Part shown: one piece after another, positions 2,709 through 53,000 of the stretch
Layout of the letters: the number at the start of each line of letters is the position of its first letter
Numbering within the stretch: the stretch's first letter is position 1
Assembly: GCA_964607415.1 (NCBI GenBank)
Contig: CAZSKK010000001.1
Coordinates: 196,190 to 260,189 of the forward strand
DNA length: 64,000 nucleotides
From: an uncultured Candidatus Saccharibacteria bacterium
Lineage (GTDB): Bacteria > Patescibacteriota > Dojkabacteria > J137
Reading direction: 5' to 3'
Notes under the pieces: model-generated
What the model was told of the DNA's origin: nothing
The model's database searches: none
What the model saw: the letters and a program-made list of their open reading frames with translations, nothing else
Program-made: the position numbers and the translations under genes

Positions 2709-3832
2709 TTTGTAGTCAATTTATTTAATCTATATCCTTTTCCATAAATAGTTTGTATATCTATATTGAACCCTAAATCAATAATCTTTTTTCTAAGTCT
2801 GGCTATTCTTTGATCTAAAGCCCATTCTGAGTATTTATTTTTAAACTCATCTTTCCATATTATTTTACCTATATCTTCTTTTTTTACAACAGAATGAGTT
2901 TTTAATAATGTTTCAATAATCTCTCTTTCCTTTACATTAAGTAAGTTCAGGTCAAGACCAGTAAGTTTATTCTCTTCCGTAAGATCAATATTTTTAAAGA
3001 TTATTATATTTTCTATTAGATCTTTTATTACCGGAATATTAATTTGGTTATCTTTTATAAATCCAACATTTTTATAATTCTCAAGAATTTCATTTTCTTC
3101 CACAGAAAGTTCAATTTGTTTGTTAATTTTTTTAAAAACGTTTAAAGCTTTCTCGTCAAAGTTTTCAATTAGAAGTTTTGCATACCGTTCGAAAGAATCT
3201 GTTTTCGCAATTTCGTCCTGAATTTTTCTTTTAGTTAACCCAAAATGCCCGTTTGTTAAAGTTTTACTCTCTAAAATCTTTTCCAAGCTAATCTCTGTAT
3301 GATATTGATTACTTAAAGTATCTCTTAACGACTCAACCGACCAATCCATTTCAATTTTTTGATAAATTATTCCTTCGAAGACTATGGATGCAGGATTTAC
3401 TTTATTCTTAATTTTATTTAAAAACATAGGATCTTCAGCCAAAAATACAAACTTTAACTTTCCTCTGTATTTTCTGTAAAAGCTATCGGCAATTTCAATT
3501 GCTTTTTCTGGTTCTTTTAGAAGAGCTAGATCATCCAAAATACATACAGTTTCTATGTTATGGCTAATAGTTTCATAAACATTATCACCAGGAAATTCGT
3601 CTCTAATCAGTCTTTCATTGATTCCGTTTTCAATATACAAGGGATCTAAAACAGGTAATGAATTAAGGGCAATATGAATAAATGAATATGTAGGGTCGTA
3701 ACCATTAGATTGTTGTGTTCCTTTTAAGAGCTTATCAAAAAGGTAATATAGTCCATCATCTGCAAAACCAATCACAGTTGGATTTATTCCCATGTTTAGG
3801 TAACTGATGACTTTTTCTTTCAAAAAATTCAT
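2705..3832 (-). CDS. Transcriptional regulator with C-terminal OmpR/CadC-type winged helix
   Basis: C-terminus ...ARLRKKIIDLGFNIDIQTIYGKGYRLN is the OmpR/PhoB wHTH signature. The N-terminal 280 aa are unassigned. Start overlaps the Nudix gene stop. Confidence 0.5.
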   Translation of the reverse strand: MNFLKEKVISYLNMGINPTVIGFADDGLYYLFDKLLKGTQQSNGYDPTYSFIHIALNSLPVLDPLYIENGINERLIRDEFPGDNVYETISHNIETVCILDDLALLKEPEKAIEIADSFYRKYRGKLKFVFLAEDPMFLNKIKNKVNPASIVFEGIIYQKIEMDWSVESLRDTLSNQYHTEISLEKILESKTLTNGHFGLTKRKIQDEIAKTDSFERYAKLLIENFDEKALNVFKKINKQIELSVEENEILENYKNVGFIKDNQINIPVIKDLIENIIIFKNIDLTEENKLTGLDLNLLNVKEREIIETLLKTHSVVKKEDIGKIIWKDEFKNKYSEWALDQRIARLRKKIIDLGFNIDIQTIYGKGYRLNKLTTK

Positions 3833-11093: not shown

Positions 11094-11196
11094 AATAAAA
11101 AAAATTTAAATTAAAAATGATTATTATTTTATTATACATGAAATTGAGAACGAGGTATTATGAACAAGGAATTTTGGTGATAGGAGTATTTAAATG

Positions 11197-11271
11197 TGAG
11201 TCGGGCGGGATTCGAACCCGCGACCAATCCCGATCAGAGATCGGGACTGCTCTCTTGAGCTATAAGATTTT
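11197..11271 (-). pseudogene. tRNA-Lys-like pseudogene: intact T-arm and acceptor 3' strand, aberrant anticodon arm (9-bp GATC-containing stem with a 3-nt TCT loop)
   Basis: Its 3' 33 nt plus 19 nt of trailer are near-identical to the intact tRNA-Lys(CTT) 330 bp away. D-arm is TAGCTCAAGAGAGCAG. Anticodon arm is GTCCCGATCTCTGATCGGGAT. Confidence 0.5.
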
Positions 11272-11503
11272 CGATATATTTTTTGCTTTTCATTTTCTTA
11301 ATCTGTTTTTCTCTTTTTAGTGCTTTTGTTTTTTCAGTGAAAGTTTCATAATATACCAGTTTCCAGTCACCAATGTTTTTCCTTGTGAACTTTGATTTGT
11401 GATGGTGTTTGTTATGCTCTAAAAGCCTTAGATTAAGATTAGTTGTAAATCCAATATAATATTTGCCTATTTCGCTGTTATGAAGAATATAAACGTAAAA
11501 CAT
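11234..11503 (-). CDS. Small GIY-YIG nuclease-domain protein (UPF0213/YhbQ-like)
   Basis: MFYVYILHNSEIGKYYIGFTTNLNLRLLEHN... shows the GIY..YIG motifs and the R/E/N catalytic residues. 89 aa. Its 3' end overlaps the 5' half of the tRNA-Lys pseudogene. Confidence 0.7.
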   Translation of the reverse strand: MFYVYILHNSEIGKYYIGFTTNLNLRLLEHNKHHHKSKFTRKNIGDWKLVYYETFTEKTKALKREKQIKKMKSKKYIENLIAQESSPDL

Positions 11504-11525
11504 TTTTGATAGGAGTATTTTAATG

Positions 11526-11597
11526 TGAGTCGGGCGGGATTCGAACCCGCGACCAATCGCTTAAGAGGCGACTGCTCTACCACTGAGCTACCAACCC
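11526..11597 (-). tRNA. tRNA-Lys (anticodon CTT)
   Basis: Revcomp GGGTTGG TA GCTCAGTGGTAGAGC A GTCGC CTCTTAA GCGAT TGGTC GCGGG TTCGAAT CCCGC CCGACTC A. The acceptor has two G-U pairs. Confidence 0.75.
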
Positions 11598-11759
11598 CAA
11601 AAAAAATAATATGCTGTTTGGCAAAACTAGGAACTATAAGATTTCCGCGTGTCTTGCAATGTATGTTACATATTACTAATAATGCTTGGAAATTATATCA
11701 CTATAAGTTAAACATGAGAATAAGAACTTTTTTATTAATATTATTTATAGCTAGGTCTT

Positions 11760-16534: not shown

Positions 16535-16774
16535 ATGGCTTATTACGTTTATATACTAAAATGTTCAGATGATTCTTTATATACTGGCATTACCAATGAT
16601 TTAGATAACAGACTTTTAATGCATAAGTTAGGTAAAGGTTCCAAGTATGTTAGGTCGAGACTTCCATTTAAAATTGTATATAAAGAAGAATTAAAAACTA
16701 AGTCTGAAGCTTTAAAAAGAGAGATTCAGATTAAGAAGATGAATAAAAATGCAAAAATAAAGCTTTTACAATAA
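16535..16774 (+). CDS. Small GIY-YIG nuclease-domain protein (second paralog)
   Basis: MAYYVYILKCSDDSLYTGITNDLDNRLLMHKLGKG... is the same family as the 11234..11503 gene. Confidence 0.7.
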   Translation: MAYYVYILKCSDDSLYTGITNDLDNRLLMHKLGKGSKYVRSRLPFKIVYKEELKTKSEALKREIQIKKMNKNAKIKLLQ

Positions 16775-44076: not shown

Positions 44077-47000
44077 TTAAAGTTTTGTGTGGCTATAACT
44101 AGCAACTGCACCACCACCTGCCTCATAATATTCAACTCTTACTGTATGTTCTCCTGCTGTCATTGTTCGGTTAACATCATAGTTTGTTCCTCCATGATCA
44201 GTCCAGAAATCTATAACCAAAACATCGTCGACATAGACCCTTATACCATCATCACTGTAGGTGTGAAATCTATATGTTCCAGCATCAAAGTTAAACTTAC
44301 CATACCATTTTGCAGAAAAATTATCAGTTGCTACTCCATTACCAGGCCCACCTCCGCCCCAGTCAAGATGAAAGCTGGATGCGTTAATGGAAGTACTGTA
44401 TGTCAACATTTGTGCCCATGGAGTAGTTGTTCCATTATAGTACTCTGCGCAGAATTGACCTGTCGGCAAGTTGCAAACTGGTGTGCTGTTGTTTCTCCAT
44501 ACAAGTTTCGAAATAGCTCCACCACCCTTTTCATAAAACTCCATTCTGATTTTATGAGAACCTGCTGGCAAAGTTATATATCCATAATCATATGTGCTTC
44601 CATGGTCTGTCCAGTTATTAATAATTAGTGTATCATTTACCCAAAGTCTGACACCATCATCAGTTAAAGTTCTAAATGTGTATGCTCCAGCAGTTAAAGT
44701 GTAATAACCTTCCCATCTAACAGAAAAATTATCGTTGCTTATTCCATTACCTGGTCCACCTCCGCCCCAGTCGTAGTTAATACTTCCTGTACAATTTGTA
44801 TATATTACATTTGCACTTAAGGTAGTATTATAGTAATAAGAACCTCTAAAGTTATTTTCTGCGCAGTAACCTGCTCTAACAGCAACCTGATTTTCAGCAA
44901 ATAACCCTCCGCTATCAGTTACCCTAAAGGTTAAATTTTCTACTCCATACCAGCTTGAAGGATAGGATATTGTAGCTGTATCACCTATAAATGAAACTTG
45001 GATATTTGTATTTCCACTTACGCTCCAGGTCGAAGTATCACCTACGTCTGGATCTGATCTATAGCTTGCAAGATTAACCTGTTTTGAATATTGGCTGAAT
45101 AAAAGTGATTGATCAGGAATATCTTGTAGTACTGGTGCATGATTTACATTATTTACCTGAAATAGTGCTGAATCGCTGTCTGATAAATTCCCAGAATCAG
45201 TTGCAGTAAATGTGATTGTTTCGCTTCCCGTCCAGTTTGCGGGATAAGTTACAGTAGCTACATTCTCTTGATTAATTGAAACTGTAAGATTTGTATTTCC
45301 AGAATTTGACCACGTTACTGTATCATTAGGATCCATTACATAATTATCAAGATCAAATGTTGTAAAATTTGAACCTGCATCAATTACTTGATCTAGAATA
45401 TCAGAAACTACTGGAGCACTATTTAATTGAGTAACTGTAAAAATTACATCCTTTGATGTGGACAAGTTTGTGCTGTCGGTAGCAATAAATGTAATGGTCT
45501 CTGCCCCCAACCAGTTCTGAGGATATGTAATAGTCACAACTTTATCCGAATCCATAGCTACGTTTAAGCTTGATTGACCCGAATATGACCACGTTATGGT
45601 GTCGTTAGGATTAATATCTGTCACATAATCATCCAAATCAAATAGTTGAAAATTTTCACTACCTGATATTGTCTGTCCTTGCAAGCCTTGAATTACTGGA
45701 GGTTCATTTGTAGCTATTGCTAAATTTGTAAGTATTTTTGCATTGCCATCCAGTTCTAAATATTCAACTTTTATATTGTGAAATCCTGGTGTCAAGCTTA
45801 CAAAAGAATTTATTACTGATGGTCCAGTGTACCATTCATCCAGTATAAGTGTGTTATCAATCCAAACTTTAGCACCATCGTCAAAATCTATGTTGTAAAT
45901 ATATGTACCTGCTTCAGAGATTTGAACAAAGCCATCAAATCTTACAGAAAAGTTATTTGTAACTCCTGGATTTGGGCAAGAAAAGGTGCTAACCACTTGC
46001 GCCAAAGTTACCTCTCCAGTTAAAGATTCGCATGTCAAAACTTTTATGTACCCATTGCCACCAATTCCTCCAGCACCTGCAGGAGAACCACCGCTACTTC
46101 CTCCTAATCCACCATTGGCTTGTACAAGATTGGATCCAATATCCATGATATTTGCTTTTAGAATGACAGTTCCTCCAGCTCCTGCACCACCACCACCAGA
46201 TCTTCCATAAATATTTTCTGGTGGAGGGTTATTATATGACCCATTACCACCATCGGTACCTTTTGCCACGACTACACCAGAGCTAGAAATGTTTAACTTA
46301 TATGCCTCAATAATAATTATTCCACCTCCATTTCCACCTGTACCTCCAAGGTTTGAGTAAGCTCTTCCTCCTCCACCTCCAGCACCACCAAGTAATGCTT
46401 TATTTACATCAGGATTAGTTACTGCACTTCCAGCAATGCCTGGTGGATTAGCTCCCCCGTTGGCACCATTTGCTCCTGCTGTAGCATTTCCACCACCTGC
46501 GCCACCTGGACCACCTTCTAATGCATTGGTTCCACCTCCACCACCATTTGCATTGTTATACCATTGGTTTATTATTTGACCATTTATGCTTTCACCAGTT
46601 TTTCCATAAGAGCTTAAATCGCTTACTCCACCTCTATATCCTTTTCCGTTTACATCAACTATTCCATTAATTAATATTTGATCTCTAACTTTAAATGCCA
46701 TTACACCTCCCGTTGATCCATCCCATGGATGTACAGTTAATGTTCCATTTACTGTAAGATTGTTGTATTCATTAACTTTTAGTAGTTGAACTTTATTATT
46801 TGTATCAGCTGTATAGCTATTTATTATTCCGGATTCTAAGGTTAAAGTATTGCCGGCAATATTTGTAATTTTCCCAAATTCATACGTTCCCGTTCCAGAT
46901 CCTTGCATTTGAATTATCAAAATCTCATTACCAATTGCGAATCCTGCTGAATTTGAAACTGAGACTTGGCTTGCACCAGCATTTAGTGTAGTTGTAACAC

Positions 47001-50000
47001 TCGTTCTAATGTCATCGGTATAGCTTGTTACACCTGAAGCTACAGTTAAATCGCCATCAGTTCCATTACCGGGTCTTTGCATTGCTGGAAAGCCTTCTGG
47101 CCCACCGCTACCCCAATCATAGTTAACGCCCGGAACACAGTTTACAAATGAAGGGTCTCCGCTCAGTCCAGTATTATTGAAGAACTCAGCATTATATTCA
47201 CCTTCATTACAAAGACCTCCCGCAAAAGTTGCCGTATCTTCAACAAATTCATTGTCTTCATCGGTAATTCGGAATGTTATATTTTCTGATCCCAACCAAT
47301 TAGCTGGCTTAGTTATTGTTACAATATTTCCTGCGTCTATATTCACGGTAAGCTCAGTGTTTCCAGTATAAGACCAACTAACCTGTTGATAGGTATTAGG
47401 ATCTGATCCAAAGTTATCTAAATCAAAGCTCTCAAATTCGTTATTCACTCCAACCAGTTGATTAGGAATATCAGAAATGGTTGGTGGGGTATTCTCGATT
47501 TCTATAATATTCATATCTATTTCTGCAGTTAAATCGTTCTCAAAGTATTCAACTTTAAGCGTATGTGTCCCAGCTAAGATTTCCGAAACTTCGCTAATGG
47601 TTTTGGCTCCATTGGTCCATTCATCTATAATTAAGTTTTGATCTAACCAAACTCTTACACCATCATCAACATTCAAGTTAAATTGGTAGGTTCCTGTGGT
47701 GAACTCTTGTGACTTTTCCCATCTTGCTGAGAATGTATCTATTTCGCAAGCGGCTTGAGTTTGATTTAAAGTTGGGCTGGTTGTTCCTGTTGTGCTATTA
47801 CAGTATTGAATTGCAATTCGTCCAACACCTCCTGCACCACCAGGTCTATTACCTCCACCTACTCCACCCAAAGCTACTACTTTATTTGTACCCAAATTTG
47901 CGTTTTCAACCTCTAACTTTATAGAACCACCAGCTCCAGCCCCTCCTCCAAAGTGAGTTGCATGAATTCCACCATCATTCCCACGAGATGTTATTTGTCC
48001 GTTTACAGTTAAAGTTTTAGCTGCAATACCAATAATTCCACCACCATTTCCTCCTGCTTGTCCATTTTCCATTCCTCCTCCACCTGAAGCTGCTGCTCCT
48101 CCTCCGCCACCAAAATTCAGCTTAGATAGGTCAGCTGTTCCTACTGCATTACCTCCTTGAGAACTGTTAGAATGTCCTCCAAGTCCGGCTGTTCCATTAC
48201 CTCCTCCAGCACCGCCATTGTTGTCAGGTTCTCTACCACCACCACCACCATTTGTAGTAGCAACATTTGTCCTTGCACTAGCTAGAGGCATAGAAGCTTC
48301 GCCTGCATATCCATAATGTGGTCCTTGCGGTGCATTGGTTTGTGCTCCTCCTCTGAATCCTTTTCCTTGTGCAGATATTGTTCCATTTACAGTTATGGTG
48401 CCATTAGCATAAAAGTATAGAATACCACCAACTGCACCGTTCCATGCCTTAGCTGAAAGAGTAGCACCATTATTGATAGTAACGTTTGAATATTGCTTTA
48501 TTACCAAAACTTGTGCAATATTCCCTGCTCCATCAGTAGCATAACTAATATTTAAAGGATCTTTTACAGTTATAGTTCCTGGAGAATAAGCTACAATCTC
48601 ATTTATTTGATAAGTACCATAGTTAGTTCCAATTGTTTGATGTATTAAGATTTTTTGTCCAGTTGCAAAGTTTGGATTTGTAGAATAAAGAGTTGTTGTT
48701 CCTTGCAATCCCGATGTTTGAGCATCAATTGGATTATCTATTGTATCTGTGCTTATTATCAACTCTCCATCTTGTCCATTCCCAAACTTATCAGATGAAA
48801 CTGGCCCACCTGCACCCCAGTTATGCGTAAGAGCACTCTCACACCCAATAACTTCAGGAGTACCTTGCAATGTTGTATTATTGTAATATTGAGTTTTAAA
48901 TTCACCAATATTACACTCCAAAACTTCATATCTTACTGTTTGGGAATTTTTTGCACCCCATGAATCTTCAGCTTCAAAAGTAATATTTTCAACCCCAAAC
49001 CAACCTACAGGATAAGTAATTGTAACTATATTATCTTGATCTTTTTGAACAGAAAGTGAAGAGTTCCCAGTATACGACCACGTGATAGGATCGTTATCTG
49101 CATCTGATCCAAATGTATCTAGATCAAAAGTTGCGAATTGTGTTGTTTGCCCTATGGTTTGATTTTGAATTCCACTTACAATTGGTGCATTATTTGTGAA
49201 TGGGTATATTGCAAGATCAATATCTGCAGCACCAGTTGAATCAAAATATTCAACCTTAATGTCGTGATAGCCTTGAGTTAAAGTTAACTCAGCTTGAGTA
49301 TCAGTTTGGCCTATAATCCAACTATCTATAAGAATGTTGTTGTCAACCCATAGTCTAACACCATCATCAGACTGTAAAGTGAATGCATAGCTTCCAGCAT
49401 TAAAGTATTGAATCTTATTCCATCTTGCAGAGAAATTATCTTTAGCACAAGATGTTATTGTGTTTGGGTTACTAGTTACACTTCCAGTTACACTGTTACA
49501 AGTATATGTCATTATTCTGCCTGAACCTCCTACACCACCATTTCCTGCTCCATTAGCACCTGCTCCCCCTCCGGCTCCACCAGCATGTAAAACAGAGTTT
49601 GAAGTAAAGTTTTTGGCTCTAAGTTTAATTGAACCTCCTGAACCACCACCACCACCTCCACAATTACTGCTAGAATTACCACCTGCTATTCCATTGACAT
49701 TAACTGTTCCATCTACTGTAAGATTACCTGTAATTTCCATTAATAATGCTCCCCCACCTGCTCCCCCTTCACAACCTCCAGGGTTTGGTGGATCTTTTGC
49801 TCTACCACCTGCTCCCCCTCCAGAACCTAAGTAAAGTTCATCAACAAGAGCCGTTCCGTAAGTTGCACCTGCACTTCCTCCTGCGGCACCGCTAACCGAA
49901 ACGCCATTTGCTCCAACGGTTGCATATGAACCACCACCTCCTCCTCCACCAACATCTGGACCTCTTCTACCTCCTCCACCAGAACCTGCTCCACCATTTA

Positions 50001-53000
50001 GCGCACCAGATGGTGAAGGACCTTCGTTTCCCCAGGTATGTATCCATGGGATTTGCCCTCCTGTATAAGATTCACCGCTTTGACCTGTAACTGCATCATC
50101 ATCACCTTCTTCGTTTCTGTATGGTTTACCACCTCTAAAGCCTTTACCTGATAATTCTATCGTACCTGTTGAGGAAACATTTGCATTATTTGCTTTTATT
50201 GCAAGGATACCTCCAACATCACCATTCCATGCATTTATAGTAAGTGTTCCTTGAATAGTAATTTGGCCGTATTTTTCAATCTTTATAACTTGAGCCTTGT
50301 TATTCGTTCCAACCGTATATGTATTTGTTAAATTTGTTCTTAAAGTCAAACTATTTGATGTTATTGAATCAATTCTTGCATATTCATATTTACCTGCATT
50401 TGTTCCCATCATTTGAATTACTAAGACTTCATCATTAACTGCAAAACCTGATGTACTTGATACGGTAATTGCACTCTGACCGCTATTTGCAGTTGCTGTA
50501 ATCTTACTTTCAACTGTATTTGCTGTATATGTTGTATTTGCGGCAACATTTAAGTCTGGAAGGCTTGAATCAATAGGGCCTTCATTTCCCCAATCATGAG
50601 TTACACTAGGTTCACAGATGCTGAATTCTGCTTCACCTTGTAAATTGTTATTTAGAAAGTACTCTCCTTTGTACTGATCTAGATTACAAGGTGTTACTTT
50701 AAATATTGCAGTATCGGTATCAAATCGATTATAAATATCAACTGCCTTAAAAGTTAGTGTTTCTTCACCCGACCATCCTTGTGGTTTAGCAATTGAAACA
50801 ATATTTTCGGAATCCTTAGATACAATTAGGTTTACGTTTCCAGTAATTTCCCATGTTACAGGATCATTATTTGGATCAGTTACTAAAGTATCTAGGTCAA
50901 ATGTTGCAAAAGTATCATTTATACCTATTAATTGATCAGTAATGTCGCTTACTACTGGAGCTTCATTAGTTGAAGGAGAAACACTAAATAAAATGTTAGC
51001 GTTTTCTGTTGCTTCAAAGTATTCAACTTTAAGATTATGCAATCCTTCGGTAAGAGTAACTTCCACTTGGTTTTCATTAACCCCTGAGTTCCAATCGTCA
51101 ATTACAATATTATTATCAATCCAAGCTCTAATTCCATCATCAGATTGGCTGGATATAAAGTAATTGCCAGCTACGAAGCTATCAGTTTTGCTCCACCTTG
51201 CAGAAAAATTATCTTTTGCACAAGAAGTTTGAGTATTTGGTGTGGTTGTTATGTTCCCTGTCAGTTCGTTGCAGCTGTAAGTCATTACTCTTCCAGCTCC
51301 TCCATTTCCTCCATTCCCCCCACCGTTGCCTGTGCCTCCCACTCCACCATTTACATAAATAGTAGAGTTTGAAATAAAGTTTTTAGAAATAAGCTTAACA
51401 GATCCTCCAGCACCTCCTCCGCCTCCTCCACAATTATTATGACTACTTCCTCCACCAATTCCATTTGAGTTCATTGCACCGTCAAGTGTGAATGTTTCTG
51501 CTGCTTCAATCAATATAACACCTCCACCTACTCCACCATCACAGTAAATTGGATGAGGTGGATCCTTTGCTCTACCACCTGCTCCCCCTCCAGAACCCAA
51601 GTAAAGTTCGTCAACAAGTACATTTCCATGTACTGTTCCTGCACTTCCGCCAGCAGCTCCACTTGAAGTTATGCCGTTTGTGCCAGCTGTACCGTATGAA
51701 CCACCACCACCGCCTCCTCCTGTATCAGGACCTCTTCTACCTCCTCCACCAGAACCTGCTCCTCCATTTAGCGCACCTGATGGTGAAGGACCTTCTCCAC
51801 CCCAAGTATGGATCCAAGGAATTTGGCTACCTGTGTAAGATTCACCGCTTTGACCTGTAGCCGAATCATCCTCTCCTAGTTCATTTCTGTAAACTTTACC
51901 ACCTCTAAACCCTTTTCCAGATAATTCTATATTTCCAGTTGATGAAACGTTTACATTATTTGCTTTTATTGCAAGGATACCTCCAATATCACCGTTCCAT
52001 GCGTCAACTGTAAGTGTTCCGTCAACATTTACTTGATCGTATTTTTCAACTTTTATAACCTGTGCTTTATTGTTTGTACCCACTGTATAAGTATTTGTTA
52101 GATTTGTTGTGAGAGCCAAATCAGTAGCTGTTAGTGATGCAATTCGTGCGTATTCGTACTTACCGGCATTGGTCCCCATCATTTGAATAACTAAAACTTC
52201 GTCATCGATTGCAAATCCACCGGTATTTACTAGGGACACAATATTTTGTGCTCCTGTTGCTGTTGTTGTTAGTTTTGATTTAACATAATTTGCAACATGA
52301 GTTGTATTTTGTGTAACTGTAAGATCAGGCTGTGCAAGATCAGTAGGTCCCTCTAAAGACCAGTTATGATTTACATTTTGCTCACACTCTCTAAATGCTG
52401 GGCTTCCTTGTAGGTTATTATTAAAATAGTATTCGGTTTCATAAGCCCCTGCAGTACAATCAATACTGATTAGATGTGTGTCTGAAACAGTGCTACTTGC
52501 ATTTGAAACAGTAACACTGATTTGTTTTTCACCATAATCAAAGAATTTGTATGTTGCTGTTGCAGTGCCTTGGCCGGATTGTGGTGTAGGTATCCAATTG
52601 TAATTTATTGGAACTGTTGCATTGCCAGGATTAAAGCCTGCATTAAAAATATAATCAGTTTCTACTGTTCCAGAAACTGCTCCAGTTATTGTTACATCGG
52701 TTAGAGTAATATCCTGGACTCTAAAGCTCCAAGTTGGGCTCCAGCTTCCTTCCCCAAAATCATTCCAAGATTTAACTCTCCAATAATATGGATTTACAGA
52801 TGGAGTTAAGTCAGTTTTTGTCCAGTATGTTAATGTATTTATGCCCCTTCTTATTGGTTGGGATAAGTTGCCTCCCGACAATTCGATATCATAGTCATAC
52901 CCATTTCCAAACCATTGCATTGTTACAGTGCTTCCTGTTGGATATAGAGTTCCGTTAGAAGGTATAACATTTGTTGGTGCTAATGGTGCTGGTGGACATG

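Follow-up and report, generated by a model that had tools for sequence, protein, structure and literature searches.

Why a small nuclease gene should lie between two copies of the 3′ end of one tRNA gene is the question raised by a locus in the genome of an uncultured member of the Dojkabacteria (WS6), a lineage of the Candidate Phyla Radiation (CPR), of which a 64-kb stretch of contig CAZSKK010000001.1, referred to below as the window, was analyzed. The gene encodes a GIY-YIG protein of 89 amino acids and sits beside tRNA-Lys(CTT). The initial annotation of the window had taken it for a mobile or selfish cassette inserted into this tRNA gene or duplicated along with it, and an empty allele of the same locus in a related genome, differing by exactly 348 nt, supports that proposal. 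With moderate confidence, we read the locus as a tRNA-Lys(CTT) gene that carries a 348-bp selfish cassette, in which hairpin-directed nicking of single-stranded DNA (ssDNA) would drive homology-dependent copying of the element.

The cassette is an insertion relative to an empty allele

The protein of 163 amino acids encoded next to the locus has a homologue, P0076, that is 86% identical, and a Logan contig from the P0076 lineage, L097, carries a DUF3298 gene, tRNA-Lys(CTT), and the gene for the 163-amino acid protein in the same order as the window, with no GIY-YIG gene, pseudo-tRNA, or hairpin at the locus. The insertion was tested by reconstruction, in which positions 11178-11525 were deleted from the window and the result was compared with L097. 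The reconstructed sequence matched L097 with 81.8% identity over 1,202 columns, and the junction was exact (…AATTTTGG joined to TGAGTCGGG), apart from an ambiguity of 4 nt (GTGA on the + strand, TCAC on the − strand) that places the two ends within 11177-11181 and 11524-11528. Read on the tRNA strand, the insertion separates the discriminator base from the CCA that comes directly after it in the empty allele; the functional tRNA-Lys is followed by CAT in the occupied allele and by CCA in the empty one, and the tRNA-Lys(CTT) sequence itself is the same in the window and in L097. A 19-nt trailer, CATTWAAATACTCCTATCA, occurs twice in the window and is absent from the empty site, and it is therefore element DNA rather than host DNA.

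In a more distant lineage, represented by contig L098, the tRNA is inverted and lies 26 nt from the neighbor gene, also without a cassette. The comparison of related genomes for empty sites that the initial annotation had suggested thus gives a presence/absence polymorphism at a fixed site between related genomes, with the window occupied and L097 empty. Since neither L097 nor L098 has the cassette, a GIY-YIG gene conserved at this spot with no variation in its presence is not what is seen. L097 also reads straight through the 33-nt 3′ part of the tRNA, a repeat that de Bruijn assembly would not normally pass if a second copy were in the sample. The parsimonious reading of these comparisons is that the cassette was gained in the lineage of the window.

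The Logan contigs from the window's own species (L082-L093) all end k − 1 = 30 nt into a 37-nt exact run of the repeat and, because they break inside it, are uninformative on empty alleles. The cassette systematically fragments de Bruijn assemblies at the tRNA-Lys locus. The ends of contigs L094-L096 were considered as signs of occupancy and were rejected, as they do not lie k − 1 into the repeat.

Anatomy and expression of the locus

The features of the locus are collected in Table 1. As initially annotated, the ORF (open-reading frame) is bracketed by a direct repeat with copies at 11178-11229 and 11507-11558; 51 of the 52 positions are identical, rather than the 50 first counted, the longest exact run is 37 nt, and the repeat continues in weaker form to 71 nt at 86% identity. 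The copy at 11507-11558 was confirmed from the sequence to consist of 33 nt of the tRNA plus the 19-nt trailer, and the ORF does fill the interval, 4 nt from one copy and 3 nt from the other, with every element lying where it had been placed. The 23-nt 3′ end of tRNA-Lys occurs exactly twice in the 64 kb, against an expectation of zero.

Table 1 Features of the cassette and its target gene in the window
Feature	Position	Strand	Evidence or remark
Insertion relative to the empty allele, 348 nt	11178-11525	-	Window minus this segment is collinear with L097
Intact tRNA-Lys(CTT), target gene	11526-11597	-	ARAGORN; Rfam 72.8 bits
Gene for the 89-amino acid single-domain GIY-YIG protein (predicted nuclease)	11234-11503	-	Pfam PF01541, E = 6e-16
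Trailer copy 1, CATTAAAATACTCCTATCA (- strand), between the tRNA and the ORF start	11507-11525	-	Sequence
Trailer copy 2, CATTTAAATACTCCTATCA, 18/19 identical to copy 1	11178-11196	-	Followed by host CCA and flank
Pseudo-tRNA-Lys	11197-11262	-	Alignment to the real tRNA; DNA and RNA folds
Second copy of the 33-nt 3′ part of tRNA-Lys	11197-11229	-	33/33 identical to 11526-11558
Palindromic hairpin, TCCCGATC-AGA-GATCGGGA	11228-11246	.	Motif scan of the 64-kb window; folds
Promoter-like site, TTCTCA-17-TGnTATAAT, upstream of tRNA-Lys	11692-11720	-	Promoter scan

In the pseudo-tRNA-Lys the variable loop is intact, and the T arm, the 3′ acceptor strand, and a shortened remnant of the D arm are kept, while the anticodon arm has given way to a hairpin, TCCCGATC-N3-GATCGGGA. 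The 5′ acceptor strand is missing and the loop measures only 3 nt, and the pseudo-tRNA was not called as a tRNA by ARAGORN or Rfam; an Rfam search of the region at E ≤ 1 returned the T arm of the pseudo-tRNA only, with no RNA family over the hairpin or the pseudo-tRNA. The overlap between the 3′ end of the ORF and the pseudogene was also borne out, as the last ~10 codons form the 5′ part of the pseudo-tRNA, with the TGA stop codon inside the hairpin loop. The 33-nt repeat of the tRNA 3′ part begins at the 3′ edge of the hairpin.

The −10 region of the promoter-like site upstream of the tRNA (11692-11703) is identical in the window and L097, and the −35 hexamer differs by one base. The tRNA-Lys and the ATG of the ORF are 21 nt apart, with no terminator-like site found in this interval by scanning, and the ORF is likely co-transcribed with the tRNA by read-through from the tRNA promoter. 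A further arrangement was noted at 11525-11558 (− strand), where the T-loop sequence TTCGAA is followed, after a 17-nt spacer, by TAAAAT in the element trailer, ending 13 nt before the ATG; this could be a weak sigma-70-like promoter, below the threshold of the scan.

The three-part design recurs at many tRNA genes

A scan of one genome per GTDB species yielded 481 confirmed homologous stretches, of which the best 80 were examined. A tRNA, a small GIY-YIG gene, and a hairpin-bearing pseudo-copy of the same tRNA were found together in most of the ~60 non-Firmicutes loci, which come from Bacteroidota, Ignavibacteriota, Omnitrophota, and CPR, involve at least 10 tRNA types, and often form tandem arrays. 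A same-strand tRNA lies upstream of the ORF in 46 of the 80 loci, at a distance of 200 nt or less in nearly all (among them Val-TAC, Asp-GTC, Ala-GGC, Pro-CGG/GGG/TGG, Ser-GGA, Arg-TCT, Met, and Gln), and an intact tRNA overlapping the 3′ end of the ORF was found instead in another four (Glu in L010 and L030, Gly in L043, Gln in L079). Downstream of the ORF, a degenerate copy of the same tRNA is present in ~35 loci; the direct repeats, 19-257 nt long and in many cases 100% identical, run through the species-specific trailer and terminator. Tandem arrays of ORF plus pseudo-tRNA were seen in several loci, including L005, L024, L034, L039, L051, and L065, and many cassette loci lie at contig ends, as is typical of repeats. 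Judged by sequence, a member of this family would be a tRNA-adjacent GIY-YIG gene of 80-90 amino acids accompanied by a pseudo-copy of that tRNA in which a hairpin replaces an arm.

The two closest relatives of the window protein come from loci with this layout. At L110 (59% protein identity), the cassette is associated with tRNA-Ala, the hairpin is in the D arm, and the ORF starts 18 nt after the tRNA, with the host CCA retained in the pseudo-copy; at L112 (53%), the tRNA is tRNA-Met, the hairpin is in the anticodon arm, and the ORF starts 6 nt after the tRNA. A mirrored variant was found in CPR and Omnitrophota (L010, L030, L043, L079), with a hairpin-bearing pseudo 5′ half, truncated in the T arm, followed by the ORF and then by the intact tRNA that overlaps the ORF end. 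The pseudo-copy of L030 additionally carries an insert of ~70 nt with a nested hairpin in its anticodon loop. The ~21 Firmicutes-type (UPF0213-type) loci contained no CCCG..CGGG hairpins, and all but one were without an adjacent tRNA.

The hairpin is conserved and marks the edge of the repeat

The hairpin TCCCGATC-AGA-GATCGGGA is the sole motif of its kind in the 64-kb window (one match, none expected), with a stem of 8 bp as DNA, up to 10 bp in the RNA fold, and a loop of 3 nt. Its DNA fold has an energy of −7.8 kcal/mol (z = −3.4) and the RNA fold a z score of −3.7. When the related loci were scanned for a CCCG..CGGG palindrome with a perfectly paired stem of at least 6 bp starting between −40 and +90 nt of the ORF end, such a hairpin was found in 31 of 79 loci, compared to 0.0013 expected per locus and a background of three in 308 kb of distant flank. 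The consensus is TCCCGA..TCGGGA, and cassettes of the Pro type have GCCCCGC..GCGGGGC instead; as the Pro-type proteins carry a different hairpin, protein and hairpin therefore co-vary. Any of the D, anticodon, and T arms can be the one replaced, and some pseudo-copies have lost two arms in this way. The 3′ edge of the hairpin falls within 3 nt of the start of the near-identical repeat in 14 of 22 loci, and likewise in the window; the hairpin marks where near-perfect identity to the functional tRNA begins.

Truncated, hairpin-bearing pseudo-tRNA units also occur without an ORF, in tandem and directly upstream of a functional tRNA, as in the five 55-nt Pro-type units of L047 (2605-2890) and the four ~79-nt Ala-type units of L023 (60-420). 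The initial annotation was right that a hairpin with a 3-nt loop replaces the anticodon arm; this hairpin is no decayed anticodon arm but a motif conserved across dozens of unrelated loci. Presumably the hairpin is the recognition element of the nuclease.

Two further observations concern individual hairpins. In L043 (Peregrinibacteria, 3395-3420), the hairpin CATTCCCGCGAAGCGGGAG sits in a third, degenerate tRNA-Gly copy downstream of the cassette and differs very little from the core of the NTS/dRS3 repeat of Neisseria. Pseudo-tRNAs in L039 (2878-2954 and 3237-3313), L051 (3231-3309), and L025 (2866-2942 and 3605-3681) were called as tRNA-Pro by ARAGORN, their D arm consisting of GCCCCGCC-N3/4-GGCGGGGC and their acceptor, anticodon, and T arms being intact. 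Hairpin-substituted pseudo-tRNAs that are sometimes called as real tRNAs are a pitfall for annotation, just as the repeats break short-read assemblies, and those of the Pro type with intact arms raise the question of processing or even charging.

The cassette protein is a minimal GIY-YIG domain under purifying selection

The Pfam GIY-YIG match spans residues 1-76 of the 89-amino acid protein, with no accessory domain. The catalytic residues are conserved, and the family alignment shows no variation at Y5, Y16, G18, or H30 and very little at R26 or E65, consistent with the nuclease activity that we would expect of the protein. The AlphaFold (AF2) model is a single compact GIY-YIG domain (pLDDT 82), and its nearest structural matches are UPF0213, then Slx1 and At-HIGLE, and then I-TevI. 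UPF0213 and other stand-alone Slx1-like GIY-YIG proteins, such as BH0048 (1zg2) and EF2693 (1ywl), have been described previously (Dunin-Horkawicz 2006, PMC1564403), and they share the minimal fold and catalytic residues with the cassette protein; the relationship is a distant one, however, with E = 3.6e-6 and 30 bits against BH0048. The cassette protein looks like a sister group of UPF0213 and not a core member. A division of the family into A and B clades by bit score was dropped, as it mixed Pro- and Ser-type cassette proteins with those of the UPF0213 type.

The ratio of nonsynonymous to synonymous substitution rates (dN/dS) of cassette ORFs was 0.03-0.20 in five orthologous pairs for which dS could be estimated, which indicates purifying selection. 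In four of these five pairs dS was at least 1.5, and it was saturated in four further pairs. Despite this high dS between orthologues, the flanking repeats remain identical within each genome. From the low dN/dS and the repeats identical in each genome, it follows that the gene is functional and that the repeats undergo concerted evolution.

Likeness to Ssn nucleases and a model for copying

The described proteins that most resemble this arrangement are the Ssn nucleases, single-domain GIY-YIG proteins of ~94 amino acids (CDD cd10448; Chenal et al., Nat Commun 2025, PMC11893778), whose binding to a TTCCCGCG..CGCGGGAA hairpin requires ssDNA, with the cut made upstream of the hairpin. The hairpin repeat of Neisseria is the NTS, CGTCATTCCCGCGMAVGCGGGAATCYRG; Neisseria Ssn restricts transforming ssDNA that bears its hairpin, SsnA binds no RNA, and 71% of Ssn homologues have flanking hairpins in an arrangement like that of an insertion sequence (IS) (PMC11893778). 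The cassettes share with Ssn a single GIY-YIG domain of ~90 amino acids with no DNA-binding domain, a GC-rich palindrome beside the gene (core TCCCG..CGGGA in the cassettes, TTCCCGCG..CGCGGGAA in Ssn, with the L043 hairpin CATTCCCGCGAAGCGGGAG in addition), hairpin units that form local clusters, an IS-like gene architecture, and an apparent co-variation of protein and hairpin. They differ in that the cassette hairpin replaces an arm of a pseudo-tRNA in a unit placed at the 3′ end of the matching tRNA, whereas tRNA is not mentioned in PMC11893778, in that a cassette unit usually has a single hairpin where Ssn genes have one on either side, and in that the orientation-defining SRM flanks of Ssn (HGTCWY..RNCYNB) are absent from the cassettes. 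It is plausible that the cassette protein works like Ssn.

In concept, the IS200/IS605 and REP/RAYT systems are also similar, in that a small enzyme recognizes a palindromic hairpin in ssDNA and the units bearing the hairpin multiply. Their HUH Y1 enzymes form a covalent intermediate, however, in contrast to GIY-YIG hydrolysis, and their hairpins are at both ends, with no tRNA mimicry; no HUH (Y1) transposase ORF is present in the insert, which has a single hairpin and not a two-ended arrangement.

In the model that we favor, the nuclease would be made by read-through from the tRNA promoter and, by analogy with Ssn, would recognize its own hairpin when this is exposed in ssDNA during replication, transcription, or transformation, and nick nearby. 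The nicked end, lying in tRNA-derived sequence, could then pair with another copy of the tRNA, whether this belongs to the same chromosome, a sister chromosome, or an allele free of the cassette. Such events would keep the repeats identical by concerted evolution, generate tandem arrays, and copy the cassette into cassette-free tRNA alleles, and the universally conserved T arm could provide the microhomology for switching to other tRNA species. A nick-and-pair mechanism would explain why the repeats are identical, why arrays form, why the hairpin lies at the repeat edge, and how the element came to be at many tRNA species. One functional tRNA copy is always kept, and the insertion is therefore tolerated.

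Several points weigh against this model. Recognition of the hairpin and cutting of ssDNA are both assumed. The published SRM motif, used as HGTCWYN(0-2)YYVSBRHN(0-5)WNVSBRGN(0-2)RNCYNB in the form of a regular expression that matches the canonical NTS, was found near the ORF in 0 of 80 loci and nowhere in the window, so that the likeness to the NTS is confined to the palindrome core; one defining feature of the Ssn/SRM group is missing, and membership in it is unproven. A simple single crossover in the 3′ part of the tRNA does not yield the second trailer copy, for which an extra step would be needed, such as a junction at the TCAC microhomology after copying from a tandem donor; simple Campbell-type integration via the 3′ part of the tRNA was considered as well, and it suits L110 and L112 and fails for the second trailer copy of the window. 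The empty allele comes from a different species-level lineage (82% nucleotide identity) and lies on a short Logan contig of 1.2 kb from sample SRR27676189, and gain rather than precise loss is a call of parsimony. The window has one cassette and one hairpin, and the closest relative of its protein is 59% identical, so there is no sign of recent transposition in this genome. In other phyla the cassette has been kept at orthologous tRNA loci over saturated dS and under purifying selection, a persistence that suits a domesticated function no less than a selfish one. Finally, a tblastn search of plasmids and phages found no homologues, and the IMG/VR viral contigs gave 10 weak homologues, none of them beside a tRNA, so a phage or plasmid vehicle is not supported; PADLOC and PHROGs gave no match for the cassette.

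A bolder version of the model, which we put forward only tentatively and judge rather less likely to be right than wrong, is that these cassettes form a distinct class, a minimal autonomous mobile element of ~330-360 bp whose enzyme would read the hairpin in a tRNA-shaped fold of ssDNA, with the tRNA sequence, conserved universally, serving as its homology arm. The cloverleaf resembles a four-way junction, which would suit an Slx1-like ancestry, and the element might be copied into the cognate tRNA of any recipient with a working tRNA regenerated each time.

Alternative explanations

Four alternatives to the hairpin-directed copying of a selfish cassette were weighed, which in decreasing likelihood are homing of the SegB kind, a domesticated host module, an RNA-level element, and the remnant of an integrase island, the last essentially excluded. 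SegB is a multi-domain GIY-YIG nuclease encoded in the tRNA cluster of T-even phages, where it makes double-strand breaks in double-stranded DNA (dsDNA) (PMC2330249; PMC13096335). It drives the tandem amplification, adaptive for the phage, of 718-bp units of tRNA-Tyr plus segB, in which the 3′ end of the ORF is joined to the 5′ end of the tRNA (PMC13096335). By the same logic, the cassette nuclease would cut the dsDNA tRNA-Lys of cassette-free genomes, repair of the double-strand break with an occupied allele as donor would copy the gene in, and the hairpin would serve only to make the pseudo-copy uncuttable. The GIY-YIG domain, the location among or next to tRNA genes, and the presence/absence polymorphism all fit such homing, as do the cutting by SegB within tRNA clusters with its tandem units of tRNA plus nuclease (PMC2330249, PMC13096335), its preferential inheritance, and the junction geometry of those units. 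The parallel to T4 seg genes drawn in the initial annotation holds in function only, however, since the cassette protein is cellular and is a bare Slx1/UPF0213-like catalytic domain of 89 amino acids, where a Seg-type protein has a linker and a C-terminal DNA-binding domain in ~200-250 amino acids, and it has no module for binding a long dsDNA site. Its nearest structures are Slx1/UPF0213 and not I-TevI, its TIGR01453 score of 16.8 bits is far below the cut-off of 56, and SegB has neither a hairpin nor a hairpin-substituted pseudo-tRNA. Moreover, the intact upstream tRNA of the occupied allele would still be a target, and disruption of a target site alone leaves unexplained why one conserved hairpin is found across phyla and across tRNA arms. 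We regard homing of this kind as unlikely.

Unlikely to a similar degree is a domesticated host module that controls recombination, transformation, or integration at tRNA loci, or acts as a copy-number "accordion", for example by destroying incoming ssDNA or by blocking integrative elements whose attachment sites are tRNA 3′ ends. A module of this kind would fit the strong purifying selection on the cassettes and the long time that they have been kept at orthologous tRNA loci, the restriction of hairpin-bearing transforming ssDNA by Neisseria Ssn and the adaptive amplification by SegB offer precedents, and integrases use sites exactly like the tRNA 3′ end that is duplicated here. Amplification adds nothing to the tRNA dosage, however, because the additional copies are disabled; close relatives do without the cassette with no visible compensation, and, like repeats, many of the loci are in tandem arrays or at the ends of contigs. 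PADLOC gave no match.

Quite improbable, in our estimate, is a device at the RNA level, in which the pseudo-tRNA and hairpin form a tRNA-like 3′ element of the GIY-YIG mRNA, serving as a processing, stability, or autoregulatory site, for instance through cleavage by RNase P or RNase Z that removes the stop codon, with the DNA repeat as a by-product. Probable co-transcription of the ORF with the tRNA and the RNA fold (z = −3.7) are compatible with this, as is the stop codon, which the window, L002, L005, L024, and the Pro-type loci have inside the hairpin or immediately ahead of it, and the Pro-type pseudo-copies keep their acceptor, anticodon, and T arms to the point of being called tRNAs by ARAGORN. 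In the window, however, the pseudo-tRNA is without an acceptor stem and so is no substrate for RNase P or RNase Z. The hairpins are perfect Watson-Crick palindromes (a weak point, as the scans required perfect pairing), arrays of hairpin units without an ORF lie upstream of functional tRNAs, and SsnA binds no RNA.

The 3′ ends of tRNAs serve as attachment sites for integrases, and direct repeats of tRNA 3′ ends typify tRNA-targeting integrative elements. The cassette resembles these in its place at a tRNA gene and in the classic signature of a tRNA 3′-end direct repeat around foreign DNA with an intact copy at one end and a partial one at the other, but a remnant of an integrase island (attL/attR), or a tandem tRNA duplication that arose by chance and caught an unrelated small ORF, is essentially excluded by an insert of only 348 bp whose sole ORF is that of the 89-amino acid protein, with no tyrosine or serine integrase, by a pseudo-copy derived from a nearly full-length tRNA rather than the attachment core alone, by the foreign hairpin, and by the recurrence of the three-part design in dozens of unrelated genomes.

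Other genes in the window

A second small GIY-YIG gene, annotated at first as a paralog of the same kind, is indeed present at 16535-16774 (+ strand) and encodes a protein of 79 amino acids. Alignment of the two proteins, one of the checks initially proposed, gave 47% identity, and comparison of their flanks showed none of the features of the cassette, with no tRNA or hairpin beside the second gene. Its protein matches BH0048 with E = 1.8e-17, compared to 3.6e-6 for the cassette protein, and the best matches to it, when ranked, are Firmicutes-type genes with 51-64% identity, placing it in the UPF0213 subfamily. It is an ordinary stand-alone Slx1-like gene of the UPF0213/YazA-like type and not a second cassette. 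It ends 4 nt before the stop codon of a convergent gene for a DUF4209 protein of 765 amino acids.

An ABC-F protein encoded in the window shares 70-71% identity with proteins named Candidatus Dojkabacteria/WS6, and the host is therefore a CPR bacterium. Two features elsewhere in the window were also noted. At 22615-22734 (− strand) there is a tRNA-like gene of 120 nt, scored at 51.6 bits by Rfam and missed by ARAGORN, whose acceptor, D, anticodon, and T arms are all normal. The discriminator is G, and the anticodon loop, CUCCAAA, corresponds to CCA (Trp). The variable region, of ~46-48 nt, is AT-rich and self-complementary, and the gene may be an unusual tRNA with a long variable arm or a tRNA with an insertion. 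A single ORF of 4,587 amino acids occupies 44077-57840 (− strand), where G+C content rises from ~0.32 to 0.37-0.41 and the GC skew is strongly negative.

Implications

A search of the full-text literature found no account of small GIY-YIG genes paired with pseudo-tRNAs in cellular genomes, and the cassettes are apparently an undescribed and broad variation, tied to tRNA genes, on the pairing of a nuclease with a hairpin. There are thousands of single-domain GIY-YIG proteins, most of them uncharacterized before the Ssn work of 2025, which left open the role of Ssn nucleases outside Neisseria (PMC11893778). If the cassettes are indeed minimal autonomous elements, this would explain the biological role of Ssn-like nucleases and the occurrence of one design across phyla. 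With nuclease, hairpin, and target copy contained in ~350 bp, and with both empty and occupied alleles known, the question of that role becomes directly testable at this locus. The cassette would add a very small tRNA-targeting element to the catalogue and a cellular counterpart to the tRNA amplification driven by SegB in phages, and it suggests new pairs of enzyme and hairpin for the cutting of ssDNA in biotechnology.

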